Below, piece after piece: positions 28,698 through 56,452 of a stretch of DNA of 64,000 bases. The DNA comes from an uncultured Pseudomonadota bacterium. GTDB lineage: Bacteria > Myxococcota_A > UBA796 > SXON01. A model generated the notes under the pieces. That model ran no database searches and was not told the origin of the DNA. It was given only the letters and a program-made list of their open reading frames with translations. Both the position numbers and the translations under genes were made by a program. The stretch lies in NCBI GenBank assembly GCA_903844155.1, contig CAIMSU010000162.1, positions 70,845 to 134,844 of the forward strand, in the 5' to 3' direction. The stretch's first letter is position 1. Every line of letters starts with the position of its first letter.

Positions 28698-31295
<2,598 letters not shown>

Positions 31296-31300
31296 GGCAT

Positions 31301-31354
31301 CGCCTACACGCGTAGGCGCGGGTCGCGAGCGGCGGCGCTACACTGCCGCCGCTC
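31301..31354 (+). terminator. Two tandem GC-rich hairpins after clpB
   Basis: The first is cgcctac-acgc-gtaggcg (7 bp, 31301-31318). The second is gagcggcggc-gctacact-gccgccgctc (10 bp, 31327-31354). There is no U-tract. Confidence 0.5.
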
Positions 31355-31365
31355 CGAGGATCCCG

Positions 31366-39068: not shown

Positions 39069-39070
39069 CG

Positions 39071-40528: not shown

Positions 40529-40545
40529 GCGGCCTGCCCCTTCAC

Positions 40546-42554: not shown

Positions 42555-43511
42555 CTACCCGACGCTCGCGGCCACCCCGTCCTTGTGGTCCGGGTACTTC
42601 CAGACAAAACCAAGCTGTTTTTCGAGCGCGTCCGTCCGCAGCCGCAGCGACGACGTGTAGATCTTGAGGTTGTCCGAGGTGAACCGGGGCTTCCAGCCGA
42701 AGATCGTGGCGAGGCGCTCGTTGTCCTTCGCGGCGCGAAACTGGAAGACGCTCGGGATCCAGGTCGACCAGAACCGCATCGGCTTCCCGCCCGCGCGCTC
42801 AAAGACCGCCTTGTAGAATTCGCGCAGGAGCGGCGTGCTTTTTCCCGCGATGTGCACGACGGTGCCGCCCGCCTTGAACTCGGCCTTTTCGGCGATCAGC
42901 ACCAGCGCCGCAACGCAGTCGTCGATGTGGACGAGGGGGACGAGGTTCTTGCCCTCGCCGGGGAGCCAGGCTCGGCCTGCTTTCATGCGGTCGTCCGCCG
43001 TGAACCGGATGCCGCGGCCGTACACGGCGGCGATTCGAGCGACCACCAGGGGCACGCCGAGCGCGGCGAGCGCGGCCTCGGCCGCAACCTTGGACTTGCC
43101 GTACTCCGTCTGCGGGTTGGACGGAAAGTCCTCGGGCACCCAGAGCCCGCTTCGATCGCCGTAGATGGCCGCGGAGCTGGCATACACCACGCGCGTGCGG
43201 CGCCCGGCCGTGCGCAGGACGTCCGCGAGCAGCTCGGTGGCCTGCCGGTTGATGACGTCGGCCGTCTCGCGCCCCTTTCCGCGCATGCCTCCGGCGAGGT
43301 GAAAGACCACGTCCGCGCCGGCAATGCCGCGCTCCAGTGCCGCCCGATCGCTCATCGACCCGGCGATGATCTCGGCACCTGCAGAGCGGACCGCCTCCTC
43401 CTTCTCGGCGCTACGAACGAGCGCGCGCACCGCCCATCCGCGCCCCGCAAGCTCGCGCACCAGCGGGAGGCCGATCTGGCCGGAGGCGCCTGTCACAAAT
43501 GCCAGCATCAA
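42555..43511 (-). CDS. NAD-dependent epimerase/dehydratase (extended SDR)
   Basis: VTGASGQIG is a Rossmann motif and a YGKSK catalytic motif is present. Confidence 0.85.
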   Translation of the reverse strand: MMLAFVTGASGQIGLPLVRELAGRGWAVRALVRSAEKEEAVRSAGAEIIAGSMSDRAALERGIAGADVVFHLAGGMRGKGRETADVINRQATELLADVLRTAGRRTRVVYASSAAIYGDRSGLWVPEDFPSNPQTEYGKSKVAAEAALAALGVPLVVARIAAVYGRGIRFTADDRMKAGRAWLPGEGKNLVPLVHIDDCVAALVLIAEKAEFKAGGTVVHIAGKSTPLLREFYKAVFERAGGKPMRFWSTWIPSVFQFRAAKDNERLATIFGWKPRFTSDNLKIYTSSLRLRTDALEKQLGFVWKYPDHKDGVAASVG

Positions 43512-43517
43512 TACTCC

Positions 43518-43985
43518 CTAATCTTCGTCGTCGCCCGGCAGGAAGGGGTCCATCCGCAGGCGCACGCCCGTCGCCACGGAGGCCCGAACGTCGGTCAGCG
43601 AGACCTTCCGCGTGGGGAAGAGCGCCTTGCGGATCTTCGCGCCGAGCAGGGTGGCGCCGTCGAGGTTCGCGTAGTCGAGGTCCGCCTCTTCGAGATTTGC
43701 CCCGTCAAAACACACTTCCCGCAGGTTCGCCCCGAAGAAGCTGGCGCCGGTGAGCTCCGCCCCCTTGAAGCTGGAGCGGGAGACGTTGGCCTCCGCGAAC
43801 TTGGCTTGCGCGAGGTTGAGCCCGTCGAACACCAGCCCGGACACGTCCGCCCCGCGCAGGTCGGCGTCCTCAAAGCTGTCCCGCCGCCGGATCATCTCCA
43901 TGACCTGCTTGCGCGGGAGGGCCGCATCGCCGAACTCCTCGGGGTCGTGGGGCTCGGTCGGAGGGATGGACTTCTTTCGGCTCAT
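43518..43985 (-). CDS. Pentapeptide-repeat protein
   Basis: A(D/N)LxG-type pentapeptides run consecutively: ADLRGADVSGLVFDGLNLAQAKFAEANVSRSSFKGAELTGASFFGANL... Confidence 0.88.
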   Translation of the reverse strand: MSRKKSIPPTEPHDPEEFGDAALPRKQVMEMIRRRDSFEDADLRGADVSGLVFDGLNLAQAKFAEANVSRSSFKGAELTGASFFGANLREVCFDGANLEEADLDYANLDGATLLGAKIRKALFPTRKVSLTDVRASVATGVRLRMDPFLPGDDED

Positions 43986-44000
43986 GCGGGTGGGCGCTGT

Positions 44001-45086
44001 TTAGCCGGTTGGCGTGGCGGGGCGCAGATCAATTTGACTCCGTTCCGAGAACCAGGAGCGCAGCACGGCCTCGGCCGGCCGGCGGGCGGGCAGGAACGCG
44101 TCGGCGAGGTCGTCATCGTCGGCGTTCAAGTCGGTGAACCACTTCCACCAGTAGACCCCCTGGAACCACGGGCGGGCGGTCGCTGCCCTGAGGAGCGCCT
44201 CGTAGGCCCGGGCTTGGAGGCCCGGGTCGGCGGCCCCCTCGACCGAGGTGTCCCAGGGACGTTCGGTCGCACCGGCCACGGCGCGGTACCCGGCCTCGCA
44301 AAAGATGACCGGGCGACCGAGCCCTTGGAGACGGTCGAGGTGCGGGGCCCACGACGCGGCCAGCGCATCGACGGTGCCGCCGACGAGCGGGAAGTAGGCG
44401 TTGACGCCGACGGCATCGAACGCCGCCCAGTCGGTGAATGTCTCGCATTCCTCGTACCAGTTCGCCGCGTACAGGATCTGCCCGGGGTACACGCGCCTGC
44501 AGGCATCTGCCACCTTCGCCCAGGCGCCTGGGTTCTTCCGTGTCGCGGTCGCGAATTCAAGGCCTACGCACAGGCTCGTCGCCCCGCCGGCGGCCGCGAC
44601 CGTCGCGTAGTGGACGACGTAGTCGGTGTACGAGGCGAACCACGCGGGCCAGTCGGCGACGTCGATGTCGCCGTTCCCCTTGCCGCTGCCGAACGCCATG
44701 CTCCACAGGTGCGGCTTCATCATCACGCGCACACCTCGGCCCGCAGCATGTCGGCATTGCAGAAGGATGTCGTCGTCCGTCATCGTGGGGTCCCCGCCCC
44801 AGCGGATGGAGGTGGAGTCGAGCGTTGGCGTGTAGGCAAATGGGTTCAGCGCGAGATCGGTGATGCCGATGCCGACGAGGCGATCAAGCTCTGCCAGGGC
44901 GCGCGGGCTGCCGTAGCCGTGACCCCGGGCGTGGATGTGGGCGAAGTTCATCCCCCGTCGAAAATTCGCCGTCAACGCCCGCGGCTCCGATTTCCATTCC
45001 GGGCCGGGAGGCAACGGCAGGGCGTTCGCGCCACATGCCGCCGCCAACGTGGCAGCCGAGCTACCGAGAAAGTCGCGGCGTCGCAC
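44001..45086 (-). CDS. Putative secreted glycoside hydrolase (TIM-barrel, clan GH-A-like) with a Tat signal
   Basis: The start was trimmed to the GTG at 45086, giving a twin-arginine signal (VRRRDFLGSSAATLAAAC). It sits directly after the pyrD stop. GLEFAT and IFCEAGY are candidate catalytic-Glu motifs. Confidence 0.65.
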   Translation of the reverse strand: MRRRDFLGSSAATLAAACGANALPLPPGPEWKSEPRALTANFRRGMNFAHIHARGHGYGSPRALAELDRLVGIGITDLALNPFAYTPTLDSTSIRWGGDPTMTDDDILLQCRHAAGRGVRVMMKPHLWSMAFGSGKGNGDIDVADWPAWFASYTDYVVHYATVAAAGGATSLCVGLEFATATRKNPGAWAKVADACRRVYPGQILYAANWYEECETFTDWAAFDAVGVNAYFPLVGGTVDALAASWAPHLDRLQGLGRPVIFCEAGYRAVAGATERPWDTSVEGAADPGLQARAYEALLRAATARPWFQGVYWWKWFTDLNADDDDLADAFLPARRPAEAVLRSWFSERSQIDLRPATPTG

Positions 45087-45087
45087 G

Positions 45088-46125
45088 CTATTTCCCCGCG
45101 GGGACCGGCAGGCGCGCGGCGAGATCCCGGTGGATCCGGGCGACCAGACCGGGGCCCTCGTAGATGAGCGCGGTGTAGAGCTGGGTCGCAGCGCAGCCCA
45201 TCGCGAGCAGCTCGGCGACGTCGTCCGCGCAGGCGACACCGCCGACGCCGATAACCGGGATGCGGCCGCCCGTGGCCTGGAGCGCCACCCGGATTTTCGC
45301 GCGCGCCAACGCTCGCAACGGCGCGCCCGACAGTCCACCGTACTGCTCGGCCCGCGCCGTGTCGCCGGGTCGTGACAGGGTCGTGTTGGTCGCGATGATG
45401 CCGGCGCAGCCGCTCTCAATGGCAACCCCGACGGCCTCGGCGAGCGCATCGTCCTCCAGGTCCGGGGCGAGCTTCAGGAACACGGGCGTTCGGCCGGCTT
45501 CGGGCACGGCGGCGGCGAGCAGGCGTTGCAGGGGCTCTTTTTCTTGCAGCGCCCGCAGGCCCGGCGTGTTCGGGCTGGACACGTTGACGACGAAATAGTC
45601 GGCCCGATCCTTGAGCGCTTTCAGGCTGTTCAGGTAGTCGGCGACGGCGTTGTCGTTTTCAACCAGCTTGGACTTGCCGAGGTTGGCGCCGACGGGGACC
45701 TTCGGCCAGCGGCCGGAGTCCCGAAGGCGCTGCAGGGTGGCTGCGAGCGCGATGGCGCCGTTGTTGTTGAAGCCCATCCGGTTGACCAGCGCGTGCTGCT
45801 CCTTCAGGCGGAACAACCGGGGCCGCGGGTTGCCCTTTTGCGCGAGCCCGGTGACCGTGCCGACCTCCACGGCGCCGAAGCCCAGCGCTTCCCAGGTGCG
45901 GATGCCGACGCCGTCCTTGTCCAGCCCCGCGGCCAGGGCCACCGGGCCCGCGAACGTCAACGGCCCGACGGCGCAGGCGAGCCGCGGATCGGGAGTCAAG
46001 TTCGCGAGGCGGGCGAGCATTCCGGCGACCGGGAGCGTCCCGAGCACGAGCTCATGGGCCTCTTCGGGGTCGAGCCGGAAGAGCAGGGGTCGCACCACCC
46101 GGTACAGGAAGTCCAGCACGCTCAC
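45088..46125 (-). CDS. pyrD: Dihydroorotate dehydrogenase (quinone), class 2
   Basis: The N-terminus LDFLYRVVRPLLFRLDPEEAHEL is class-2 like. GFNN, NLGKSK, NVSSPNTPGLR and IGVGGV motifs are present. The start must be the GTG at 46125 or 46119, because the track start at 46209 lies inside the tRNA. Confidence 0.9.
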   Translation of the reverse strand: MSVLDFLYRVVRPLLFRLDPEEAHELVLGTLPVAGMLARLANLTPDPRLACAVGPLTFAGPVALAAGLDKDGVGIRTWEALGFGAVEVGTVTGLAQKGNPRPRLFRLKEQHALVNRMGFNNNGAIALAATLQRLRDSGRWPKVPVGANLGKSKLVENDNAVADYLNSLKALKDRADYFVVNVSSPNTPGLRALQEKEPLQRLLAAAVPEAGRTPVFLKLAPDLEDDALAEAVGVAIESGCAGIIATNTTLSRPGDTARAEQYGGLSGAPLRALARAKIRVALQATGGRIPVIGVGGVACADDVAELLAMGCAATQLYTALIYEGPGLVARIHRDLAARLPVPAGK

Positions 46126-46179
46126 CCCGCTTATCGAAAAATGACGAAGGCGGCCCGTCACCGGACCGCCTCCGCGAGG

Positions 46180-46265
46180 TGGTGCGCGAAGCGGGACTTG
46201 AACCCGCACGGGAGTTACCCCACTAGCACCTCAAACTAGCGCGTCTACCATTCCGCCACCCGCGC
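46180..46265 (-). tRNA. tRNA-Leu (anticodon GAG), CCA encoded
   Basis: GCGCGGGTGGCGGAATGGTAGACGCGCTAGTTTGAGGTGCTAGTGGGGTAACTCCCGTGCGGGTTCAAGTCCCGCTTCGCGCACCA. It has a 7-bp acceptor stem, a CTAGT/GCTAG anticodon stem with loop TTGAGGT, a long variable arm and a GCGGG-TTCAAGT-CCCGC T-arm. Confidence 0.92.
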
Positions 46266-46315
46266 AGCGCTGGCCTGCTAAACCACGCGCGGGCGGTCGT
46301 CAAGCCGGCTGTCGC

Positions 46316-46828
46316 GTGTACGATGTGAACGTGCTGCCGGTCCTGCCGCTTCTGTCCTACCTGCTCGGTTGCACCGCCGCGCACGGGTCGGCCGAGAGCG
46401 GTCCTGGGGACTCCGGGGGCGACTCGCGTGGCGATTCTCAGGTCGATTCCGGCGTTTCTTCGGACAGTGGATTCCGGGTCACCCGCCCCGCCCGGTCCCG
46501 CCCTGACGTCCACCCGTCCGGCGCGCTCGCGGTGACGAACGGCACGGACGCCGACCTGTACCGCGTCTGGCTCTACGACCCCGTGAGCGGCTTGTCGTCC
46601 TTCAAGGCCAAGGACTCCGGCTCCGGCCCGCAGCCGCTGATCCCGGTCGGCGAGGTGTTGACCTGGGCGGGTCTGCACATCGGGCCCTGGCGCGCCGCCG
46701 TAACGACCGTCGATGGGCGCTGTGCTTCGGAGAACCTTACGATCTCCGCGGGCGTCGTGACCGCGTGGACGGTCACCACGCTCCCCGGCACCTTCAGCGA
46801 CGCCAGCCAGACCTGCATCGTGCCGTGA
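46316..46828 (+). CDS. Small lipoprotein, unknown function
   Basis: The lipobox is VLPLLSYLLGC, followed by a Ser/Asp/Gly linker and a beta-rich body. Its 3' end overlaps the convergent gene by 35 nt. Confidence 0.6.
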   Translation: MYDVNVLPVLPLLSYLLGCTAAHGSAESGPGDSGGDSRGDSQVDSGVSSDSGFRVTRPARSRPDVHPSGALAVTNGTDADLYRVWLYDPVSGLSSFKAKDSGSGPQPLIPVGEVLTWAGLHIGPWRAAVTTVDGRCASENLTISAGVVTAWTVTTLPGTFSDASQTCIVP

Positions 46829-49154
46829 GGGCGCTCAGGAAAAACAGGAGGAAGGAGGCGGAGAGCGTCCCCGCCTGAGGCGCGCCGGTCGACGCGCACC
46901 CGCATCGCCGAACGCCCGTCAGCACGGCCCCGTCGGCGCTCCCCTCGACCCCGTCCAGACAGACGGCGTCCTCCGCACCCGCCTCGTCGGGCGACCCGGT
47001 CAGCGAAACGTCGTGCCAGGCGTCGGTGAGCGTGCCGGATTCGAGCAGGAGCGAGCCCTGTTTCTTCACTTTTTCGCCGAAGCTGCCGATCGCGGTGCCG
47101 TCGACAGTCACGCTCACGTCGCCGGACCCGTCGCTCCGCCCCCAGACCCGCACGACCGTTCCGCGCACGCTCCCCGTCACGGTCGCCCCCGCCGGGAGTG
47201 GCGTGCAGGTGCCGATCGCAGCGTCGCTGTCGCTGCGGGCGCGGGTGCCGTCGACGGTCAGGAAGCCGCTGTGGTCGTCGAGGCGCTCGTAGCGGCCGAA
47301 GCGCGCGAGGGTGTCGCCGGAGAGGAGCCAGGCGCCATCGTACGTACCGAGGACGAGGTCGGGGTGCGCGGCAAAATCGGGCCGCGCGGCCAGCTCGGAG
47401 ACAGCCGCGGTGAGCTGGACACCGACGTCGGTGAACGAAGCGGCCTGGTCGACGCTTTTGAGCAGACGTCCGCTCCGTGTCGCGGCAAACACGGTGTCGT
47501 CGTCGGTGGTGGTCACGGCGACGACGGGGTCTGCCGAGCCGTCGTAGACGAGCGTGGGGACGCAGTTGTCGACGGTGTAGACGCCCTCGTCGACGGTCGC
47601 GACGATGAGACGGCCGCTGGACAGCTCGGCGACGCCCTTGACCGTGCTCGCGCCTGCGTACACGGTGGTCCAGGTCCCACCGTCGTCCGTCGAGCACGCC
47701 ACATTCCCGGCCGCGATCGCGCAGATGCGCGTGGGGGTGCGAGTGAACGCGCCGACCGTCTCGGTCAGGCCCAGGCCTGCGACGGGCGCCCAGCTCACGC
47801 CCCCGTCTGGGCTGCGGGCGGCAGTGCCAGTCACGCCGAAAACGTTGGTTGGATCGGGGTCGCCGGAGAGCCAGAGCTCCCCGCCCGTACCCGCCGCGAG
47901 CCCGTGGAGCGCCGAGAACGGGGTCGTCGGCTGCGTCCAGGTCGTCGCACCATCGTCGCTGCGCCAGAGCAGGTGGTCGGCGATCGCGTAGGCGGTGTGC
48001 GGATCGTCGGGGGCGATGGCGAGCGGACCCTGGATGTTCGCCTCAGTGAGGCCGAGGCCCGGCGCGTCCCAGGTCGCCCCGCCATCGTCCGTCCGCTCGA
48101 CGCCTGCGGAGTAGCCTCCGAGCAGCACCACGCCGTCCTTTTCGACGTTCGGGGAGATCGCGACTGCGCGGATGTAGTCGGGCGGGAGCACGACGACCTT
48201 TTTCCAGGTTGCGCCACCGTCCTCGCTCGCGGAAAAACCGTCCCAGCCGGCCTGGATGAGGAGCTCGCCAGCGATGGCGAGCTCGGTGGTGGCGGCAGCG
48301 TCGCTCTGGGCGCTGCCGTTGTTCGTGAAGTCGGTGTCCATCGGGGCGGCGACGGAGGTCCAGGTCGCGCAGTCGTCCGAGGAGACGGCGGGGCCACGGC
48401 TCGCCGCGCTGGCGAGGAGCCGGAGATCATCGCTTGCAAGCGCGACGATCGCGGGGTGATCGTCGCCGGCCTCGGGCGTCGGGCCGCACGGGGCCCAGGT
48501 CGTGCCGTCCCAGCGCGAGACGGCGCCGGATCCCATGCCCGCGTAGATCGTGGAGGACGTTGCGAGCGAGGCGGTGACGGGCTCGGCGAGGGCGGGGAGG
48601 GCGACGAGGTCCGCGCCCGCGACCGTCCAGACTGCGCCGTCGACGTCGACGGCGGTGTAGCCGCCGGGGCCCCCCGAGGGGTTCGAGAACGCTGTGCCCG
48701 TCGCCATCGTCGCCAGTTCGCCGGGCTGGCCGAGGGCGACGCCGTCGTCCATCGTGATGAGGATGCCGTCACCCGCCGCGAGCCCCGTGCCGACCGCTGG
48801 AAGATCAGCGTTGGACCACGTCGCCCCGTCGTCCTCGGACCACCAGTAGTGTGTGTCTGAAAGCAGGACGAGCGTGCCGTCGTCGGTCCGGGCAGCGTCG
48901 ATGAGCAAGTCGGCGTTTGGCGGGCCGGAGACGGCGCTCCAGTTGTCACCGGCGTCGGTGCTCTCCAGGATCAACGTGCTCGATCCGGTCGCGTGGATCA
49001 GCACCCAGGGGTGGGCGTTGGCGAGCCCGGCGTCGACCGCACCCGCGAGCATGTCGTTGTGCGGGACGTGCGCTTCTGCAGTCGCGGCCACCAGGTACAG
49101 CAGCGCGACGGGCGCGCCGCTGGCCCATCGCCGGGTCAAAAAGCTTGCCCCCAA
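46794..49154 (-). CDS. BNR/Asp-box beta-propeller protein with a MYXO-CTERM tail
   Basis: The signal peptide is APVALLYLVAATAEA. There are at least 8 Asp-boxes (STDAGDNWS, SEDDGATWS, SEDGGATWK, TDDGGATWD, SDDGATTWT, SPDGGVSWA, STDDGGTWT...). The C-terminus is RRCGCASTGAPQAGTLSASFLLFFLSALTAR. The start is the TTG at 49154 or 49139 (TTGA overlap). Confidence 0.85.
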   Translation of the reverse strand: MGASFLTRRWASGAPVALLYLVAATAEAHVPHNDMLAGAVDAGLANAHPWVLIHATGSSTLILESTDAGDNWSAVSGPPNADLLIDAARTDDGTLVLLSDTHYWWSEDDGATWSNADLPAVGTGLAAGDGILITMDDGVALGQPGELATMATGTAFSNPSGGPGGYTAVDVDGAVWTVAGADLVALPALAEPVTASLATSSTIYAGMGSGAVSRWDGTTWAPCGPTPEAGDDHPAIVALASDDLRLLASAASRGPAVSSDDCATWTSVAAPMDTDFTNNGSAQSDAAATTELAIAGELLIQAGWDGFSASEDGGATWKKVVVLPPDYIRAVAISPNVEKDGVVLLGGYSAGVERTDDGGATWDAPGLGLTEANIQGPLAIAPDDPHTAYAIADHLLWRSDDGATTWTQPTTPFSALHGLAAGTGGELWLSGDPDPTNVFGVTGTAARSPDGGVSWAPVAGLGLTETVGAFTRTPTRICAIAAGNVACSTDDGGTWTTVYAGASTVKGVAELSSGRLIVATVDEGVYTVDNCVPTLVYDGSADPVVAVTTTDDDTVFAATRSGRLLKSVDQAASFTDVGVQLTAAVSELAARPDFAAHPDLVLGTYDGAWLLSGDTLARFGRYERLDDHSGFLTVDGTRARSDSDAAIGTCTPLPAGATVTGSVRGTVVRVWGRSDGSGDVSVTVDGTAIGSFGEKVKKQGSLLLESGTLTDAWHDVSLTGSPDEAGAEDAVCLDGVEGSADGAVLTGVRRCGCASTGAPQAGTLSASFLLFFLSALTARCRSGWRR

Positions 49155-50632
49155 CCAACAACGATGCCGGCGCTGACGGTGCCGTCGGGGTTTGGCACGA
49201 ACCCGACGTCGATGCGCGTGACGTTGAGGTCCGACGGCGGGAGCACCAGCCGCACCCCTCCGCCGACCGAGACATGCGCGTCGCTCAACGAGGGCGCCCA
49301 GCCCGCGCCAGGCAGCCCGCCGACGTAGGCGCTGTCGACGAAAAGCGCCCCCTGGAGTGCGCCGAAGAGGTGCTGACGGTACTCAAGCTGTGCCGCGGCC
49401 AGCAGCGGGCCCCGCCAACGCCCTGCCGGTGCCCCTCGCAGCAGGTTGGACCCGCCCGCCGACGGCAGCCGGTAGAACGGCCCGTCCGTCGACGTCTCCT
49501 CCAGCAATCGCCCGACGACACGCCCGCCGGTCGCCGCGATCGGCAGGTTCTTCCGGACGTCCACGCTGCCCATCGCGAACAGTGGCGCCCCGGCCATCCC
49601 GTCGACGTCGCCCGCCACCGAGACCCGCGCGGGCCCGGACCACGTGACGGCCGCCCAGGGCCCGCCCGCGAGGCCGCCGTCCCTGTCGAGCGCGGGCATC
49701 GGCGCCACCACCTCCGCCCGGTCCCACCGCACCTCGCCGCCGCCCTCGACCACCAACGGCCCATGCGTCGACGCAATCCCGCTGGCCGCCTGCGCCGTCT
49801 GCCAGTTGTAGCTGGTCTCCGCCGCATCCGGCCCTCGCCCCGCGCCCCAGACGTCGCCGCGCAGGTTCCCCCCGAGCGCTCGCCCGATCAGCGATCGCGT
49901 CGACGCCCGCTGGATGAAGCTGCCGGCGACCTCAAATCCGCCGAGCGAGTCGACGTCGCCGTCCAGGCTCAGCCGGTGGCCTTCAAATCCCAGGTCCGGG
50001 TCGACAAAATGGAGCCCGAAGCCGACACCCGACCCCGGCACGATGCTGATGCCGTAGCCGAGCACCCAGGTTCCGGGCCACGGGTTTGGCGAGGCGGCTC
50101 CCTTCGCTGAGTGTAGATGGGCCTTCGCGGCGGCGATTCGCGTGTCGGCAGGCGCCCAGCCGGCCAGCGGTGTGAGATCCTTCTGCACCTGCGCCGGGTG
50201 CGCACCCGCGATCCCCGGCATCCAAAGGTCATAGTCCGCCTGCGCGATGCGACACCAGTCCGCCCCCGGCCCGGCGGGACCGGAGAGCACGCGGTCACAC
50301 CGCGCGACCGCGGCGTCCAGCGGGCCCTCCAGCCAAAGTGGGCCGAGATTGCCGGAGATCGGCAGGAGTCGCACCCGGAGCATGACCGTCAACGCGTCCG
50401 CTGGCAGGCCGTCGGTGCCCTCCGTCTCGGTGCCTGCGAGCAGCGCACGCCAGATCCGCACGGCCGTCAGCCGATCGCCGGAGGCCCACTTCGCATCGGC
50501 GTCGTCGAGCTGGGCCATCGCGGGCGGGTACGGGGGCGCAGCGGGCGTGCTGTCCACGGGGATGGCCAGTGGGAGGTCGACGGGGGCGGTCTCTGCCTGC
50601 GGCGCCGGCTCGACCGGGGGGGCCGGATCCAT
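49136..50632 (-). CDS. Omp85/D15 'surface antigen'-type beta-barrel protein with a non-POTRA helical N-terminal domain
   Basis: The C-terminal half matches the barrel family pattern (GGSNLLRG, LEYRQHLFGALQGALFVDSAYVG, VGGGVRL, terminal GWGQAF). The ATG at 50632 overlaps the FAAL stop (TGATG). I see no signal peptide in any in-frame start. Confidence 0.75.
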   Translation of the reverse strand: MDPAPPVEPAPQAETAPVDLPLAIPVDSTPAAPPYPPAMAQLDDADAKWASGDRLTAVRIWRALLAGTETEGTDGLPADALTVMLRVRLLPISGNLGPLWLEGPLDAAVARCDRVLSGPAGPGADWCRIAQADYDLWMPGIAGAHPAQVQKDLTPLAGWAPADTRIAAAKAHLHSAKGAASPNPWPGTWVLGYGISIVPGSGVGFGLHFVDPDLGFEGHRLSLDGDVDSLGGFEVAGSFIQRASTRSLIGRALGGNLRGDVWGAGRGPDAAETSYNWQTAQAASGIASTHGPLVVEGGGEVRWDRAEVVAPMPALDRDGGLAGGPWAAVTWSGPARVSVAGDVDGMAGAPLFAMGSVDVRKNLPIAATGGRVVGRLLEETSTDGPFYRLPSAGGSNLLRGAPAGRWRGPLLAAAQLEYRQHLFGALQGALFVDSAYVGGLPGAGWAPSLSDAHVSVGGGVRLVLPPSDLNVTRIDVGFVPNPDGTVSAGIVVGWGQAF

Positions 50633-52350
50633 CAGCTTCGCCGACCCCAATGGCTGAGCGTGCCCCGCAGCAGCGCACCGGCGACCAGCAGCGGCGTGAC
50701 CGGCGAGGGCGCCTTGAGGTCACCGGCCAGGTACAAACGGAGCGCTTCGCCGCGTCGGATCTTGCCCGAGCTGGTACGCGGAAGGGTGCCGGGGCCGAGG
50801 AGGATGACCTCGTCGGGCGCAAGCTGGGTCGCGGCGAGGATCGCGTCCGAGCAGCGCTTTTCGAGCCCCGGGGCGCGTGTCTCCACGAACACGATGAGGC
50901 GCTCCGTGTCGCCGCCTTCGGCCAGGTAGCTGACAGCGGCCGCGCACCCGGTCCGGACGCCGTCGACGCTGTCCACGGCCTGCTCAACCTCGTGCGGGGC
51001 GTAGTTGCGGCCACGCAGGATCAGCACGTCGCGCGATCGCCCGGTGATGTACAGCTCGCCGGCGTGGAGAAAGCCAAGGTCGCCGGTGTCCAGCCAGCCG
51101 TCCACGATCGCGGCGGCGGTGCGCTCGGGCTGGTGAAAATACCCGGCCATGACCGAGCCGCCCTTCACCCGCACCCGGCCGATCACGTCGGTAGGCACGT
51201 CCAGCTCCAGCCCCACAAGGGGCTTGCCAACGCTGACCAGCTCCACCCCGTCGGTTTCAACGGGGAGCGCGGCGCCCCGACCGAGCGCCTCGCGGTCAAA
51301 TCTGGCGGTGTGAAAGCGGGTCCGCGGGGCGGAGAATGTGACCGCAAGGCTCGCCTCAGCGAGCCCGTACACGGGCGTGAGGGCCTCGGGACGCAGGCCC
51401 CATCGGGCAAAGCGCTCGACAAAGCGGTTCAGCGTCGCCGGGCTCACCGGCTCGGCGCCGTTCAGGGCCAGGCGCCAGCCGGAGAGGTCCACGCCCTCCA
51501 TCTCCTCGTCCTTGACGCGATCGACGCACAATGCGTACGCGAAATTGGGCGCGGGGGACACGACGGCGCCGGTCCGGCCTAGCGCGCGCAACCAGATCGC
51601 CGGCCGTGCGATGAAGAGCTCCGGTGGGATCAACGTGAGCGTTCCAGGCTGGACCAACGCCGGAAACACGCAGCCGATCAGCCCCATGTCGTGGTACAGC
51701 GGCAGCCAGCTCACGCCCGCCCGCGAATTGTGCTCGTCCACATCCAGGACGTGGCCGAGGATCGCCCGCACGTTCGTGAGCATGTTCGCGTGGGAGAGGG
51801 CGACGGGCTTCGGGTCGACGGTCGTGCCCGAGGAGAACTGCACCAGCGCGATGTCTCCGGGCGAGGCCTCGGTGTGGAGGGGGTCGGCGGCGTCCGGTCC
51901 CGTCGTAGGGATCGTCTCGATGGCGACGCACGGGATGTTGGCGCGCCGCACCGTCTCGCCGAGGATGCGCCAGAGCCGGTCGTCGGTGAGGAGGAGGCGG
52001 GCGTTGGCGGCCCGCAACATGGCCGTCGTGCGCGCGTGGTACTCGTCGAGGCGGCCGAGGCGGACCGGCGGGTAGAGCGGGACGGGGATGGCGCCGGCGA
52101 GGATCGTCCCGAAGAAGGCGTCGAAAAAGCCGGGCCCGGTCGGCAGGATCAGCGCGACGGTCTCGCCGGAGAGGACGCCTCGGGCGCGCAGGGCGCCGGC
52201 GAATCGCTGGGCGCGCGCGTAGAGATCGCCCCAGCCAAGCCTGGTTTCCCGCTCGCCCTTGTTCAGGAATGCGAGGCCGGTGCCGGCGCCTTCGCGTGCG
52301 GCGCGCCGTAGCGCTTCGCCGAGCGTGGCTGGGGACACCGAGGGGGTCAC
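50632..52350 (-). CDS. Fatty acyl-AMP ligase (FAAL-type adenylating enzyme)
   Basis: LAFLNKGERETRLGWGDLYARAQRFA is a FAAL-like N-terminus. FSSGTTVDPKPV is the adenylation core. YHDMGL, TGDLG and GKIRR motifs are present. The GTG start at 52350 overlaps the ACP stop (GTGA). Confidence 0.85.
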   Translation of the reverse strand: MTPSVSPATLGEALRRAAREGAGTGLAFLNKGERETRLGWGDLYARAQRFAGALRARGVLSGETVALILPTGPGFFDAFFGTILAGAIPVPLYPPVRLGRLDEYHARTTAMLRAANARLLLTDDRLWRILGETVRRANIPCVAIETIPTTGPDAADPLHTEASPGDIALVQFSSGTTVDPKPVALSHANMLTNVRAILGHVLDVDEHNSRAGVSWLPLYHDMGLIGCVFPALVQPGTLTLIPPELFIARPAIWLRALGRTGAVVSPAPNFAYALCVDRVKDEEMEGVDLSGWRLALNGAEPVSPATLNRFVERFARWGLRPEALTPVYGLAEASLAVTFSAPRTRFHTARFDREALGRGAALPVETDGVELVSVGKPLVGLELDVPTDVIGRVRVKGGSVMAGYFHQPERTAAAIVDGWLDTGDLGFLHAGELYITGRSRDVLILRGRNYAPHEVEQAVDSVDGVRTGCAAAVSYLAEGGDTERLIVFVETRAPGLEKRCSDAILAATQLAPDEVILLGPGTLPRTSSGKIRRGEALRLYLAGDLKAPSPVTPLLVAGALLRGTLSHWGRRS

Positions 52351-52601
52351 GCCCCGCCCCGGCGTTCGAGCAGGGCGACCAGGTCGGCGACGGTGATGAG
52401 GCCCTGCTCGTCCCCCTCCTCGAGGCAAACGGCGAAGTGGTTCTCGAGCTCGGCGACGAGCGTCAGCATCCGCACGCTGTCGAGGCGCAGGGTCTCAACG
52501 AGCGGTTGGTCGGCGGTGAGCGGTGCGTCATGACCGAGATGCGCGCGCGCGACCTCGGAGATTCCGTCGAGGTAGCGGTTCGTGGTCGGGAGCGCATTCA
52601 T
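52347..52601 (-). CDS. Acyl carrier protein
   Basis: The ORF is 84 aa with an LRLDSVRMLTLV phosphopantetheine-attachment motif. The start was trimmed to the ATG at 52601. Confidence 0.8.
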   Translation of the reverse strand: MNALPTTNRYLDGISEVARAHLGHDAPLTADQPLVETLRLDSVRMLTLVAELENHFAVCLEEGDEQGLITVADLVALLERRGGA

Positions 52602-52780
52602 CGGGGCGTCGGGTATCAAGGTGGGCGTCGGGGCGACGTCACGTCGGCCCCTCCGGTCCGGTGTTGGCTGTCTCTTGCCCGTCGCGCCGTGTTTTCCGAC
52701 TGGGCCGCGTGTTCGTGACCTCCCTTGACCCGTCCACACCTGCGCGGTTTCCGGTGCGCGCGACCGCTGCTGACCGCGTC

Positions 52781-52818
52781 GAAGGCACGCTTCGTGCGGG
52801 GCACGAAGTCGCGCCTTC
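52781..52818 (-). terminator. Long imperfect hairpin overlapping the stop of the membrane gene
   Basis: The outer stem is gaaggc...gccttc and the inner stem is cttcgtgc-ggg-gcacgaag (8 bp). There is no U-tract. Confidence 0.4.
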
Positions 52819-53173
52819 AACCCGTCCAGCCACACACCAGCCAACCGATCCCGACGACAAGCCAGCCAAGCGATGCCCCGGCTCGGTAGCACGTGCGTGC
52901 AAGGTCGGGCGCCCCGGCGCGTAGCAGCCCCGCACCGGCGCCCGCGAGCACGACGACGCAGAACGCCAGGTGCTCCTTCACCTCAAACGCTTGAGCGAGC
53001 CCAAACGCGTGGCCGAGCAGCTCGTGCTTCACACCGGCGCGGTAGTCGCCGTAGATCAGGAGCCCGCTTCCGAACGAGACGATCGCGAGCGCGGAGGCTG
53101 CCAGTGCGCTGCTGCCCTGCGCCGTCCGCGCGAGGGCCGGGTGGGTCAGCGCCGCTGCAGCGAGCACGCCCAC
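52817..53173 (-). CDS. Small hydrophobic membrane protein; start uncertain
   Basis: There are about four hydrophobic helices (VLAAAALTHPAL, ALAASALAIVSFGSGLLIY, LAFCVVVLAGAGAGLL, LGWLVVGIGWLVCGW). The frame is open right up to the upstream stop at 53214, and the first canonical start is the GTG at 53173. Confidence 0.45.
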   Translation of the reverse strand: MGVLAAAALTHPALARTAQGSSALAASALAIVSFGSGLLIYGDYRAGVKHELLGHAFGLAQAFEVKEHLAFCVVVLAGAGAGLLRAGAPDLARTCYRAGASLGWLVVGIGWLVCGWTG

Positions 53174-53213
53174 AAAGCCGTGCGCGGACCTCTCCAGCGC
53201 GAACGCGTCGAGG

Positions 53214-53996
53214 CTAATGATCGGCCGCGAAGGTGATGGTGATCGGCGTGATCTTGGCGTCCGGCTTGTCGGTGAATCCCGGCGGCACATCGCCCGTCTC
53301 GTAGTCCCAATGCCGTGTTTCACCCGGCGCGATCGGCTTGTAGAACGTGTCCGGCATCGGGGTCTTGTACGTTGGCGCGACCGCGGGCATCTGGATCGGG
53401 TTCGTCGCCGCGCCCGACGGGTCGATGATCTGCAACGACACGTTCAGGTAGGAGATCGTCTTGTCGCCGCCGTTGGTGACGTCCGCTGAAAACCCCCAGC
53501 CATCCTTCGGTCCCTTCGGGTTCTCGGCGAGGTTCACCTGCTCGATCTTCAGCGGCGTCCACGTCAGCTTCGGCCCGTAGGCCGCCATCACGATGCGGTT
53601 CTTCGCATCCTTCACCACGGCGCCGTCGGCCGTCGGGTTCTCTGTCATGAACTTCTGCCAGCCCTCCGGCGTGTTCGTGGCCTCGGCCTCCGTGAGCGCG
53701 AGGTCGGTGCGGGCTTTCTGCAGCTTCTTCAGGTTCCGGGTCTTCGGGAAGCGCTTGATGACCGCATCGTAGTCCGCGATGGTCTTCTCGGTGTCGGCTT
53801 TCGCGGTCATCAACTGCTCCAGACGTCCCTCGCCCTCGATCTTGTTCGAGCCCGTGGCCTCCGGCATCGCCAGATACGTGTTCCAGGCCTCGATGGTGTC
53901 GGCCTTCCGGGCGTCGTCGACGGGGTCGGAGCACCCGGTGCCAACGAAAGGGCAGGAGAGCAGGGCGTAGAGGGCGACGAGGGGCAGGTTGCGCAT
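53214..53996 (-). CDS. Hypothetical lipoprotein
   Basis: MRNLPLVALYALLSC is a lipobox. AAGGA lies upstream of the ATG. The N-terminal half is Lys/Glu-rich and helical, and the C-terminal half is beta-rich. Confidence 0.75.
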   Translation of the reverse strand: MRNLPLVALYALLSCPFVGTGCSDPVDDARKADTIEAWNTYLAMPEATGSNKIEGEGRLEQLMTAKADTEKTIADYDAVIKRFPKTRNLKKLQKARTDLALTEAEATNTPEGWQKFMTENPTADGAVVKDAKNRIVMAAYGPKLTWTPLKIEQVNLAENPKGPKDGWGFSADVTNGGDKTISYLNVSLQIIDPSGAATNPIQMPAVAPTYKTPMPDTFYKPIAPGETRHWDYETGDVPPGFTDKPDAKITPITITFAADH

Positions 53997-54017
53997 GGGA
54001 ATCCTTGGAATGTCAGC

Positions 54018-54026
54018 ATTCTATCA
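54018..54026 (-). promoter_or_regulatory. Extended -10-like promoter element (TGaTAGAAT) upstream of the lipoprotein gene
   Basis: The minus strand reads ...catgaTAGAATgctgacattccAAGGAttcccATG. The -10 box lies about 22 nt upstream of the ATG, in a locally AT-rich patch. No clear -35 is visible. Confidence 0.3.
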
Positions 54027-54156
54027 TGAAACTCGTCGGGACGTTCGCCACCGGATCGCGTTCCAATCGAGGCGCTACCTTCTTTTCTGAGGGGTGCGCC
54101 TACGCGGCGCCTCCCTCCGGACGCCGGGGGCGGCCTACCCCCGTGCCGGGCCCTGA

Positions 54157-54182
54157 CGCTGATTCGGAGTACCGAATCAGCG
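54157..54182 (-). terminator. Perfect 11-bp hairpin downstream of lepB
   Basis: cgctgattcgg-agta-ccgaatcagcg lies about 90 nt after the lepB stop on the minus strand. A second weaker hairpin lies at 54190-54211. There is no U-tract. Confidence 0.45.
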
Positions 54183-54269
54183 CGACTTTACTCCGCCGCA
54201 AGCGCCGGAGTACCGTCGGGCAGCGTCGCAAGGGTCGGGGCCGGCCGCCAGGAACACAGTCCCGACGCT

Positions 54270-55118
54270 CTACTTCAACATCTGCCCGACGCGCTCGGTC
54301 CTCAGCTTGCCGAGGCCCCGAATCGCACCCTGGCAACTGTCAAACGAGAGCCACACCAGCTCGGCCTTGCCCCGCACATTGTCACGCGGAACGAAGCCCC
54401 ACACACGGCTGTCTGCTGAGTTGTCGCGGTTGTCGCCCATCACGAAGAAGTTGCCATCTGGCACGGTGATCGGCCCATAGTTGCTGATCCCGCCCATCGT
54501 GATCCCTTGCGATTGCAGCACCGGGTGTGGCATCCCCTCGAGGTCCTCGGTGTACTCCTTCATCGTGTCTGGCCGGCACGTGGTGTCGGTGTAGTCGTAG
54601 TCCTGCGTGTACTGCCGGGATTCTTCCTTCCCGTTGATGTAGACGACGTTGTCGCGCACCTCGATGGTGTCGCCAGGCTCGCCCACGATGCGCTTGATGT
54701 AGTCGATCCCACACTCCGGCCCGTCGATGAACCCGAGCGAGAGCGTGTGTGGCAGCCCCTTGACCCAGCAGAGCGGGTCGTCCGATTGTGAGGGCGGGTA
54801 GATGAACACGATGATGTCGCCGCGCTTGGGCTCACCGAGCGGCAGGATCTCGATGTTGGTGAAGGGGACGCGAAGGCCGTAGGTGAACTTGGAGACAAGG
54901 ATGAAGTCGCCGATCGCGAGCGTCGGGACCATCGAGCCCGACGGGATCTGGAACGGCTCAAACAGGATGCTGCGAATCACGAGGACGATGAGGATCGGCG
55001 GGCCCCAGGCGCTCAGGACCTCCCAGAGCCAGGCCCCGGAGCGTTTGAGCGCCGACCCCTGGGGTTCGGGCGGCGGAGGCTCCACCGGCTGCCGCAGGTC
55101 GATGTCGAGGCCGCTCAT
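54270..55118 (-). CDS. lepB: Signal peptidase I
   Basis: IPSGSMVPTL carries the catalytic Ser. GDFILVSKF and GDNRDNSADSRVWGFVP are present. The start was trimmed to the ATG at 55118, which has GGAGCAAGG upstream. Confidence 0.92.
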   Translation of the reverse strand: MSGLDIDLRQPVEPPPPEPQGSALKRSGAWLWEVLSAWGPPILIVLVIRSILFEPFQIPSGSMVPTLAIGDFILVSKFTYGLRVPFTNIEILPLGEPKRGDIIVFIYPPSQSDDPLCWVKGLPHTLSLGFIDGPECGIDYIKRIVGEPGDTIEVRDNVVYINGKEESRQYTQDYDYTDTTCRPDTMKEYTEDLEGMPHPVLQSQGITMGGISNYGPITVPDGNFFVMGDNRDNSADSRVWGFVPRDNVRGKAELVWLSFDSCQGAIRGLGKLRTERVGQMLK

Positions 55119-55265
55119 CCTTGCTCCGGGCTTGGTCGTTCGCTTCGGGCCGCCGCATAGCCCGCCACCCGCCGGCTCGCTCACGTTGCCGGCCGGACGC
55201 CTTCGGGTTGTCGCTACCGGTCACGCCTCCCGAATCGCCTTGAATCGAGGTAACCGGGGGCGCAG

Positions 55266-55910
55266 ATGTACTCGCCCGACGCCCTCCATCGCTTGACCCT
55301 GCCCGCGCCTTTGCGGGGGGCGGGCGTGAATGTGGAGGCGGGGGAGGGGAGCGCTGCGATCGGCCTGCGACGGGCCTCTGTCGCGATTGTTCTTGGATCG
55401 GATGACAAGTTGTTGCTCATCCGGCGGGCCGCGCGCGACGGGGATCCCTGGAGCGGCGACATGGCCTTTCCGGGCGGTCGGCGCCAGGTGGAGGACGCCG
55501 ACGACGTCGCCACTGCGGTTCGGGAGACGCAGGAGGAGGTGGGCCTGGACCTGTCGACGGCCACGCTGGTTGGCGCGATGGCCCCCCAACATTCCCCGCT
55601 TCGTCGCCCGGATCTGGCCGTGTCGGTCTACCCGTTCTTCTTCCGGACGGCCGACTGGGGACCGTTCGTCCCCTCCGACGAGGTCGCAGGCGTCCATTTG
55701 CTTGATGCGCACGCACTTTTGAGCGGCGCCTGTCGCCAGACGTTTCGTTATCAGGGGTGGGGGCTCGATCGCGAATTGCCGTGCTTGCGGCTGGACGAGG
55801 TGTTCATCTGGGGGTTGACGCTGCGGATGCTGGACGACCTCGCGGAGGCCTGTGGCGTTCCGGCCCGGGACGACTGGCCCCGGGCGACCAGCTTCGAGGC
55901 CCACAAATGA
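55266..55910 (+). CDS. NUDIX hydrolase (CoA pyrophosphatase-like)
   Basis: The Nudix box is GGRRQVEDADDVATAVRETQEEVGL. It forms an ATGA overlap with the next gene. Confidence 0.85.
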   Translation: MYSPDALHRLTLPAPLRGAGVNVEAGEGSAAIGLRRASVAIVLGSDDKLLLIRRAARDGDPWSGDMAFPGGRRQVEDADDVATAVRETQEEVGLDLSTATLVGAMAPQHSPLRRPDLAVSVYPFFFRTADWGPFVPSDEVAGVHLLDAHALLSGACRQTFRYQGWGLDRELPCLRLDEVFIWGLTLRMLDDLAEACGVPARDDWPRATSFEAHK

Positions 55911-56452
55911 CCCCGCTCCTGCTTGCGCTCGCGTGTGTCCACACGCCCCCGCACCTCGCACCCTCGGGTGAGTGGAAAAAGGACTACACCCGCCGCGAGG
56001 AGACGCGCGAGGACGGCACCTACTGCGCCTGGGAGGCCGAATCGTTGACCTACAAGGGCGTGCCGCTCTGGTCCGCCGAGCCGCCCGAGGGCGAAAACTG
56101 GTGCGCTGCCGCCGATGAATCGTCCCGGTACTTCGACGTTGTCGGGCAGGACGGACCGTTCCTCTCGGTGAGGACGGTGGAGACCGGCTGCTGCCCGGAG
56201 CGGTCGACAGCGGCCTGCCTGACGTGGAACCTGGAGACCGGAAAAGTGGCCACATTGGCCGACTATGACGAGCATCACGCCGCCAAGCGGATCACGGACG
56301 CGACCGCGATCCTCGCGGACGAGGACTACAAGGGCTTCGTCCTGGCCGACAACGGCTGGGTGGTCAAGCCCGATGGCCACGTAGCCCTTTGCGCGGTGCC
56401 TGCTGCCGGGGCCCACTCCGCGGCCGACATCCGCGAGATCGACGTCAAGTGA
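55907..56452 (+). CDS. Hypothetical lipoprotein
   Basis: The start was trimmed to MTPLLLALAC (lipobox) at 55907. It is translationally coupled on both sides. Confidence 0.6.
   Translation: MTPLLLALACVHTPPHLAPSGEWKKDYTRREETREDGTYCAWEAESLTYKGVPLWSAEPPEGENWCAAADESSRYFDVVGQDGPFLSVRTVETGCCPERSTAACLTWNLETGKVATLADYDEHHAAKRITDATAILADEDYKGFVLADNGWVVKPDGHVALCAVPAAGAHSAADIREIDVK

Follow-up and report, generated by a model that had tools for sequence, protein, structure and literature searches.

A 64,000-nucleotide stretch of the genome of an uncultured member of the Myxococcota_A (assembly GCA_903844155.1, contig CAIMSU010000162.1, positions 70,845 to 134,844; hereafter the window) was analysed to follow up an earlier note on four adjacent genes on its minus strand, at 46794-52601. 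In the direction of transcription, these genes encode an acyl carrier protein (ACP), a fatty-acyl-AMP ligase (FAAL), an Omp85-type beta-barrel protein that lacks a signal peptide and a secreted beta-propeller (Table 1). Direct reading of the sequence shows that the four open reading frames (ORFs) are joined by three stop/start overlaps. The ACP stop (TGA) and the FAAL start (GTG) share GTGA at 52350-52347, the FAAL stop and the ATG of the barrel gene share TGATG at 50634-50630, and TTGA at 49139-49136 contains the barrel stop (TGA, 49138-49136) and a TTG start of the propeller gene at 49139, for which a second possible TTG start exists at 49154. Public gene calls of identical proteins agree on lengths of 572, 498 and 781 amino acids (aa) for the FAAL, the barrel and the propeller. 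In this stretch of approximately 70% G+C, the G+C content at third codon positions (GC3) was 0.87-0.88 for the same three ORFs, the ACP ORF (84 aa) being below the filter of the coding-signal script. The four genes and three overlaps described in the earlier note are confirmed by these readings, and the overlaps at all three junctions bear out its claim of translational coupling; the gene identities that it proposed were recovered by Pfam and NCBIfam matches and by structure searches, as detailed below. It was also correct that the locus provides no condensing enzyme, nonribosomal peptide synthetase or polyketide synthase (PKS), or acyltransferase, as none was found within the 64-kb window. 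A promoter and terminator scan of 46000-56500 detected no promoter-like site and nothing that delimits the operon.

Table 1. Features of the four-gene operon and of the conserved genes upstream of it, in window positions (group A is described in the text)
Feature	Position	Strand	Basis or remark
ACP, stand-alone, FtpC-type, 84 aa	52347..52601	-	PF00550 and NCBIfam ACP matches; LDSV serine motif
FAAL, FtpD-type, 572 aa, with conserved C-terminal tail of ~25 aa	50632..52350	-	PF00501, NF006624, FAALs in the PDB
Barrel protein: acidic Pro/Ala/Glu-rich N-terminal extension, low confidence, no signal peptide	50525..50632	-	pLDDT <50 for residues 1-34
Barrel protein: TPR-like seven-helix N-domain with invariant Cys pair	50108..50524	-	AlphaFold2 domain model, Foldseek
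Barrel protein: 16-strand Omp85-type beta-barrel, stop codon included; L6-like RLPSAGGxNLLRG, C-terminal GWGQAF	49136..50071	-	AlphaFold2, Foldseek, profile
Propeller, secreted BNR/Sortilin-type beta-propeller, 781 aa	46794..49139	-	PF15902, PF13088, NF045728
Propeller: Sec signal peptide, MTRRWASGAPVALLYLVAATAEA / HVPH	49071..49139	-	Read from sequence; cleavage context conserved in orthologues
Propeller: degenerate MYXO-CTERM-like tag (RCGCASTG – hydrophobic helix – RCRSGWRR)	46797..46907	-	Read from sequence
TM130, small membrane protein of ~130 aa, start codon uncertain	52817..53215	-	Directly upstream of the ACP gene in the group-A cluster
260-aa lipoprotein, lipobox-type N-terminus	53214..53996	-	Conserved in the group-A cluster
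Type I signal peptidase (S26), head of the co-directional cluster	54270..55184	-	PF10502, E 3.5e-51

The barrel protein is not matched by any Pfam family, PF01103 included, and only marginally by NCBIfam models (Omp85 and TamL; NF047779, E 0.036). An AlphaFold2 model built on 20 homologues (predicted local distance difference test score, pLDDT, 77; predicted template modelling score, pTM, 0.70) falls into three parts, namely a disordered N-terminus of approximately 35 residues, a seven-helix domain (residues 43-181) and a 16-strand barrel (residues 194-500). Foldseek comparison of this model with the PDB returned TamA, BamA and CdiB (E 2.5e-11 to 2e-9, probability 1.00). The family profile matches BamA of F. 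nucleatum (9ccg, E 0.004) and, in a library of 1.8 billion proteins, reaches proteins of 360-590 aa that pass PF01103 (E 1e-18 to 1e-23). The family alignment contains an invariant RLPSAGGxxLLRGxxxGRxRG stretch at the site of Omp85 loop 6, as well as the motif FxDxA and, at the C-terminus, the beta-signal GWG(Q/E)AF. As modelled, the barrel is a member of the Omp85 superfamily: it has in common with BamA and TamA the 16 strands, an L6 motif of the (V/L)RG type, F-x-D-x-(A/G) and the C-terminal aromatic beta-signal, but it differs from them in lacking a POTRA domain, a PF01103 match at Pfam thresholds and a signal peptide, with a TPR-like N-domain instead. This N-domain is all-helical in the model and, when modelled alone, reached a pLDDT of 89.6. 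Its Foldseek matches are all TPR domains (FKBP52, Sec72, Sgt1 and BamD); they are weak and none is better than E 0.03, for which reason the domain is called TPR-like rather than TPR. Its invariant residues include C118 and C133. The exchange of POTRA for a TPR-like domain would make the protein a previously undescribed architectural variant of a known superfamily.

The earlier note had also called the barrel leaderless, and this description holds. The N-terminus is not hydrophobic and the ORF is closed at 50650, 6 codons upstream of the ATG, so that an alternative upstream start supplying a signal peptide is ruled out by in-frame stops. Despite the missing signal peptide, we infer that the barrel is located in the outer membrane. 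The N-terminal extension in front of the helical domain, exemplified by MEPVEPVEPPLAIAAPLEQPLAIAAPLEQ, resembles a TonB-type periplasmic spacer (N-termini of P0003, P0006, P0008, P0010 and P0011).

Homologues of the barrel were collected at two levels of sensitivity. A word-indexed search yielded 25 relatives, none of which carries a Pfam domain (0/25), and an exhaustive profile search yielded, at E<=1e-30, approximately 85 clusters (50% identity level) that combine the complete TPR and barrel parts. All 23 loci from GTDB species representatives belong to metagenome-assembled genomes (MAGs) labelled as Myxococcota, 'Deltaproteobacteria' or uncultured proteobacteria, some of the labels being evidently wrong for contigs of 65-78% G+C. 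Eight such contigs (L010, L014, L017, L019, L021, L022, L024 and L025) are recorded as 'Klebsiella pneumoniae', 'Enterobacteriaceae' or 'Enterobacterales' MAGs, which are evident mislabels. Judged from these sequences, the family is small and confined to uncultured Myxococcota. A signal-peptide-like N-terminus is absent in 39 of 70 full-length members and the other 31 have short ones; the leaderless members are those tightly coupled to an upstream ORF. The invariant Cys pair of the N-domain and a canonical beta-signal are kept in all aligned members.

Gene maps were drawn from public gene calls and from our own ORF, tblastn and clustering analysis. They place the barrel gene last in three unrelated operon arrangements. 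Group A, in which the barrels are 49-66% identical to that of the window, has the order S26 signal peptidase, 260-aa lipoprotein, TM130, ACP, FAAL and barrel, and comprises the window, L001/L002, L005/L007, L006, L008+L009, L033 and the contig encoding P0002. In group B (barrel identity 33-39%; the eight loci L003/L013, L011, L012, L015, L016, L020 and L023), the barrel follows a PMT_2 gene (GT-C glycosyltransferase) and a sulfatase-family lipoprotein gene. Group C (barrel identity approximately 30-34%; L019, L022, L026, L028 and L029) starts with a CN_hydrolase gene, which may be followed by genes for a 387-aa membrane protein and a lipoprotein with a PF09826 beta-propeller (the latter, Beta_propel, in L019/L022) before the barrel. 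L014 has PMT_2 and then the barrel directly, without the sulfatase. Most members of the family are encoded without a FAAL or ACP gene nearby. The idea that a frameshift fusion to the FAAL or the sulfatase provides the leaderless barrel with an export signal was set aside, as no slippery site was seen at the junction, the FAAL itself has no signal peptide and the C-terminal tail of the FAAL is also present where a monooxygenase is the next gene. An aminotransferase conserved near group-B barrels was considered as a link to sphingolipids; this was rejected, since the enzyme belongs to the generic class I/II aminotransferases (NF005744) and not to the Spt/KBL type.

Within group A, the ACP-FAAL-barrel unit recurs in the other contigs with the same overlaps of 1-4 nt (for example, junctions at 8298/8301 and 10001 in L001 and at 5177 and 6877 in L006). 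The genes upstream are conserved as well: TM130 is 64-72% identical by tblastn in L001, L002 and L005-L008, the 260-aa lipoprotein is 61-65% identical in all group-A loci, and the S26 gene is syntenic in L001, L005, L006, L007 and L008. TM130 has no match in Pfam or NCBIfam, and no family match was obtained for the 260-aa lipoprotein. Genes of the NUDIX and GT87 families are oriented divergently to the cluster. L005/L007 lack the ACP gene, and there the FAAL gene directly follows that of the small membrane protein (L005 7903-10001; L007 7843-9941). In L001 (7166-8059) and L002 (1693-2501), the genes for the small membrane protein and the ACP are separated by a toxin-antitoxin pair of the AbiEii / Rv0078B type on the opposite strand. 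This insertion splits the cluster, and ACP-FAAL-barrel must therefore be expressible on its own there. In the L005/L007 lineage, a PKS of >3300 aa is encoded approximately 2.5 kb past the barrel on the opposite strand. By tblastn, the propeller had no match in any of the barrel loci collected at first; it is absent downstream of the barrel in L001/L002, L005/L007, L006 and L008+L009, and the product of the 662-aa gene downstream in the P0002 contig is not among the propeller homologues. Of the four-gene order reported by the earlier note, the ACP-FAAL-barrel core is thus conserved across group A, whereas the propeller joins it only in the window and L033.

The second element of the locus, the ACP-FAAL pair, could be assigned to a known type of pathway. 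The ACP matches PF00550 (PP-binding, E 4.4e-5) and NCBIfam ACP models, with the LDSV serine motif in its translation. The FAAL matches PF00501 (AMP-binding, E 1.3e-53); its best NCBIfam model is NF006624 (fatty acyl-AMP ligase; E 3.5e-121, with 405 bits below the curated 600-bit cutoff), and the core motifs SSGTT..PK, YGLAE, TGDLG and SGKIRR are intact in the translation. The top PDB matches are all FAALs (7r7e, 3kxw, 3pbk, FadD23 and FadD32), and the protein is nearer to FAALs (E 1e-84 to 1e-46) than to CoA ligases (1e-26 or weaker). The group to which it belongs is very large and highly conserved, with 2567 proteins at E<=1e-150. Group-A orthologues are 73-81% identical to the FAAL of the window. 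Three relatives at 59-66% identity, on a JGI contig (L034) and in a Rokubacteria MAG (L035) and an Acidobacteriota MAG (L036), are encoded in the order Chal_sti_synt (type III PKS), ICMT/PEMT methyltransferase, PP-binding, AMP-binding and FAD_binding_3 monooxygenase. With the FAAL as query, a metagenome scan gave 74 loci, and the same order was found in all 22 of the nearest outgroup loci (L034-L054 and L101; FAAL identity 52-66%), as far as the contigs extend. The scan added T3PKS-type relatives only and no further group-A locus. The barrel, the propeller, TM130 and the 260-aa lipoprotein are all absent from the outgroup loci L037-L054 and L101, and the barrel is also absent from L034-L036.

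Compared with the type III PKS cluster pair of L034, the ACP of the window is 72% and its FAAL 66% identical. On this comparison, ACP and FAAL are a predicted starter-loading pair, orthologous to that of clusters for alkylresorcinol/alkylquinone membrane lipids, of the kind of Ftp in Myxococcus xanthus and Srs in Streptomyces. The M. xanthus genes are taken to be ordered ftpABCDE; the order in the 22 loci is from sequence analysis. Clusters of this type were first reported by Hayashi et al. in 2011 (pmid 21815236). Like the Ftp and srsABC-type clusters, the window has a stand-alone ACP gene followed by an overlapping FAAL gene. It differs from them, as do the other group-A loci, in that no tblastn match to a type III PKS, an ICMT-like methyltransferase or an FAD monooxygenase was obtained in the 64-kb window or the group-A loci. 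The slot of the monooxygenase is occupied by the outer-membrane barrel and that of the methyltransferase by an unrelated small membrane protein. TM130 was considered as a decayed form of the ICMT-like methyltransferase and ruled out (hhalign probability 0.2%). In this lineage, the pair is thus, as far as gene content tells, separated from the type III PKS, methyltransferase and monooxygenase and a displaced member of a known system. Its orthology to a type III PKS starter-loading pair in 22/22 outgroup loci makes an unlinked condensing enzyme the obvious partner, most likely a type III PKS, which it probably still feeds. In M. xanthus, FtpA takes the acyl-ACP made by the FAAL FtpD (PMC5707447), and the products of SrsA and FtpA are oxidised to alkylquinones (PMC10896814).

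Several smaller observations concern these FAAL loci. The last ~27 codons of the FAAL gene (50632-50715) encode a C-terminal tail, VTPxLxAGALxRGTLxHW with basic residues, that lies past the end of the solved FAAL domains. It is common to the FAALs of the type III PKS clusters (L034-L036) and of group A (L001-L008) and may form an amphipathic helix for membrane association or a docking peptide. In the Rokubacteria locus (L035 2122-13780), the type III PKS, methyltransferase, ACP, FAAL and monooxygenase genes are flanked by a DUF1302 outer-membrane protein, an extra ketosynthase and ACP and the series ABC_tran, FtsX, FtsX and LolA-like (DUF1329/TP_0789-like); its gene content suggests a phenolic-lipid cluster equipped with a set of envelope export genes for itself. 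An enoyl-CoA hydratase gene and a gene of ~100 aa flank the type III PKS cluster in L034 (3881-5016) and recur in L030 (12558-13693) at 64% and 39% identity, where the two abut a TPR gene and no type III PKS cluster is present. The L030 arrangement would fit the view that relatives of the window organism have lost the cluster or carry it at another site.

The propeller is matched by PF15902 (Sortilin-Vps10; E 9e-14, 51.5 bits against a cutoff of 33), PF13088 (BNR_2; E 1e-7, 32.1 bits against a cutoff of 31.4), BNR and NF045728 (E 3e-25). Its orthologues P0027-P0032 all end in Cys-containing tripartite C-terminal tags. In the window copy, the tag consists of RCGCASTGAPQAG, TLSASFLLFFLSALTA and RCRSGWRR, that is, a Cys motif, a transmembrane helix and an Arg-rich extreme C-terminus, and its position is homologous to that of the orthologue tags. 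The tail of the window copy did not match the MYXO-CTERM model TIGR03901 even at E<=10. Three more distant orthologue or paralogue copies, two in L030 and one in L032, have tails that pass this model with 24.9-27.3 bits, the cutoff being 20. The tail of the closest orthologue, in L033, remains under it at 16.6 bits. The MYXO-CTERM tag claimed by the earlier note is therefore retained as far as the tripartite, Cys-containing layout is concerned, but not as a recognised TIGR03901 match for the window copy. At the other end of the protein, the mature N-terminus (49059-49070) reads His-x-Pro-His in every family member: AEA/HVPH, AYA/HVPH, ALA/HVPH, AQA/HVPH, AWA/HLPH and AWA/HYPH (the slash marks the cleavage site; copies compared were L030 5739-7991 and 8001-10316, L031 7911-10364, L032 686-2989 and L033 966-3386). 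The conserved His as mature residue 1 recalls N-terminal metal-binding sites such as the histidine brace.

The orthologue P0027 (58% identical), on the 3.4-kb contig L033, directly follows a fragment of a barrel gene (66% identity to the barrel of the window), with a 4-nt overlap. Orthologues at 47, 41 and 38% identity (L030, L031 and L032) are surrounded by unrelated genes, and FAAL, ACP and barrel genes are absent there. A 484-aa gene after the L031 orthologue was considered as a hidden barrel and shows no similarity. Since the propeller gene adjoins the barrel only in the window and L033 and its orthologues elsewhere stand alone, it is best read as a recent addition to the operon, made in the immediate sub-branch of the window only.

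The explanation favoured here, on which we are evenly divided between acceptance and doubt, is that the locus is a mosaic envelope operon and not a machine dedicated to the lipidation of the propeller. The FAAL would adenylate a long-chain fatty acid and load it onto the phosphopantetheine arm of the ACP, and the acyl-ACP would then feed the unlinked condensing enzyme. The barrel gene would have taken the slot normally held by the monooxygenase, and its product would be a modular translocase or insertase for periplasmic protein clients, with the TPR-like domain as periplasmic receptor. In this genome, the propeller would be the likeliest client. It is pictured as a Sec-exported surface protein with a decayed MYXO-CTERM-type tag, and any lipid anchor would come from the general periplasmic pathway and not from acyl-ACP. 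Protein clients are proposed because, to our knowledge, every characterised Omp85 acts on proteins, because TPR domains bind peptides and because exported proteins mostly adjoin the barrel. These neighbours are the propeller in the window and L033, the lipoprotein sulfatases in group B, the lipoprotein Beta_propel in L019/L022 and the 260-aa lipoprotein in group A.

Several points weigh against this explanation. The stop/start overlap between FAAL and barrel is kept in every group-A genome, at barrel identities down to approximately 50%, which argues for more than accidental adjacency. An acidic Pro/Ala/Glu-rich N-extension of 26-62 residues is found only in the FAAL-linked barrels of group A, which may point to an interaction particular to this group. 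No route to the outer membrane is known for a leaderless barrel, and its localisation there is an expectation. The proposal of protein clients is weak: exported proteins do not adjoin the barrel in L014, L026, L028 and L029, and lipoproteins are common in Myxococcota. The search for a type III PKS covered the 64-kb window and the group-A loci, so that the unlinked partner is a prediction.

Among the alternatives, the one that survives best is that the TPR-Omp85 is a clade-specific housekeeping paralogue, a BamA barrel combined with a BamD-like TPR domain, that has no functional tie to its neighbours and owes its position to the lack of a promoter of its own. There is usually one barrel copy per MAG, the gene context shifts with phylogenetic distance while being stable within each clade, BamD is among the weak structural matches of the N-domain, and some neighbours, such as the Nit1-like CN_hydrolase, are cytoplasmic and have no envelope role. 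The recurrence of exported lipoproteins or tagged proteins as immediate neighbours and the position of the barrel as an always tightly coupled last gene in three independent arrangements speak against a mere lack of ties, and a family of approximately 85 clusters in one lineage is more in keeping with an accessory than with a core role. We regard this alternative as somewhat unlikely.

A coupling to lipid export is unlikely. Here, the FAAL-ACP pair would start a phenolic or other specialised envelope lipid, and the TPR-Omp85 would have displaced the tailoring monooxygenase from the operon as the outer-membrane end of the delivery of this lipid, with the N-extension reaching an inner-membrane partner such as TM130. 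The conserved FAAL-barrel overlap and the restriction of the N-extension to FAAL-linked barrels speak for this proposal; TM130 is conserved directly upstream, and the Rokubacteria cluster with its DUF1302, ABC/FtsX and LolA-like genes illustrates that such clusters can recruit export hardware. It is at odds with established knowledge of the superfamily, of which no member is known to carry lipid and whose families (BamA, TamA, TpsB and Sam50) act on proteins, and with the scarcity of FAAL and ACP genes near most members of the barrel family. The link between FAAL and barrel is seen in one clade only and could be inherited synteny, and the ACP is missing in L005/L007. A more far-reaching version would have the TPR-Omp85 as a new Omp85 branch that needs no Sec signal peptide to arrive in the outer membrane, has replaced the monooxygenase behind an Ftp-type FAAL-ACP pair and delivers to the surface the FAAL-derived lipid or a protein carrying it, with the N-extension bridging to the inner membrane; this we hold to be quite unlikely.

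The earlier note had proposed that FAAL and ACP supply the acyl group for the tag Cys of the propeller, or for an outer-membrane lipid, and that the barrel handles insertion or export, all four genes forming one dedicated module. Processing of MYXO-CTERM proteins is attributed to MrtX and type II secretion, and the published model has Sec export, lipidation at the outer face of the inner membrane and then cleavage by MrtX (PMC11980579). The lipidating enzyme is unidentified and probably universal, Lgt having been proposed, and MrtX on its own suffices for cleavage of the tag in E. coli (PMC11980579). This known route needs no acyl-ACP or local acyl donor. The propeller family resembles proteins of this pathway in its Cys-containing tripartite tags, and differs in that the published route has no FAAL, ACP or Omp85 and the window copy fails TIGR03901. 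A lipidation module requires genes that travel together, and the propeller is mostly found apart from ACP-FAAL-barrel. Therefore, even granted the coupling of all four genes, the same barrel-propeller overlap in L033 and a lipidating enzyme still to be named, the dedicated module is not supported and is very improbable, given that propeller orthologues keep their tags at loci without FAAL, ACP or barrel, that four other group-A lineages have ACP-FAAL-barrel without the propeller, that the window tag is the most degenerate of the set, that acyl-ACP is cytoplasmic and the tag Cys periplasmic, that cleavage in E. coli requires MrtX alone and a universal enzyme such as Lgt is favoured for lipidation (PMC11980579), that no acyltransferase is present in the locus, that the barrel family mostly occurs without FAAL or ACP, and that the ACP-FAAL pair, orthologous to that of type III PKS clusters, has a clear and different ancestral role.

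For the mosaic operon favoured here, the closest analogies are found among translocons. Slam consists of an N-terminal TPR domain and a 14-strand DUF560 barrel, and TpsB has two POTRA domains and a cargo with a TPS domain. The barrel of the window follows a plan similar to that of Slam (type XI secretion) and TpsB, with a periplasmic TPR or receptor domain, an outer-membrane barrel and a translocon gene beside the gene of its cargo, a surface lipoprotein or exoprotein; the barrel-propeller and sulfatase-barrel pairs are comparable to this. It differs from Slam in being a 16-strand Omp85 barrel, not DUF560, with an N-domain that is TPR-like only at weak scores, and from TpsB/TpsA in lacking POTRA domains, the propeller having BNR/Sortilin domains only. 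Omp85 paralogues of the 'noNterm' type are barrels without POTRA whose function is unknown (Heinz & Lithgow 2014, PMC4104836), and those of Leptospira (LIC12252/54/58) adjoin genes for surface lipoproteins or adhesins (PMC11358297). The window barrel shares with them the absence of POTRA and the location beside such genes, but its family has a folded 140-residue TPR-like N-domain, and the Leptospira proteins have signal peptides. The barrel does not fit the defining features of any of its closest analogies, Slam, TpsB and the Leptospira noNterm Omp85s. A literature search combining Omp85 with acyl-AMP ligase found no papers.

It is the leaderless barrel family, and its taking the place of the monooxygenase after an Ftp-type FAAL, that make the locus interesting, rather than the four-gene composition. 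The FAAL-ACP pair is ordinary and assignable to type III PKS phenolic-lipid pathways, and it leads to the prediction that a type III PKS is encoded at another site of these genomes. The unusual part is the barrel, an Omp85 protein that has a TPR-like receptor domain instead of POTRA, no Pfam family and a distribution limited to uncultured Myxococcota. Its leaderless members, approximately half of the family, retain a disulfide-type Cys pair and a canonical beta-signal; if they are truly located in the outer membrane, they would run counter to the rule by which beta-barrels of the bacterial outer membrane are Sec substrates. That the barrel gene recurs beside genes for exported lipoproteins or proteins with a tag suggests a new translocon dedicated to surface display, which would add to Slam, TpsB and the type II route of MYXO-CTERM proteins.

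Some further features were noted around the operon. On the plus strand, a 170-aa ORF with a lipobox (LLGC) at 46316-46828 runs towards the propeller gene and shares 35 nt with its 3' end. The minus strand has a strong terminator-like hairpin, with 14 pairs and a T-run, at 46175-46144; this hairpin is upstream of what is probably the true start of the dihydroorotate dehydrogenase gene. The flanks at 37512-45449 and 56389-57711 are rich in envelope-glycan genes, encoding two GT87-like GT-C enzymes, GT2 and GT4 proteins, an NAD-dependent epimerase, a pentapeptide-repeat protein and a GH113 protein, and a PLD-type (cardiolipin-synthase-like) gene is located at 31198-32466.

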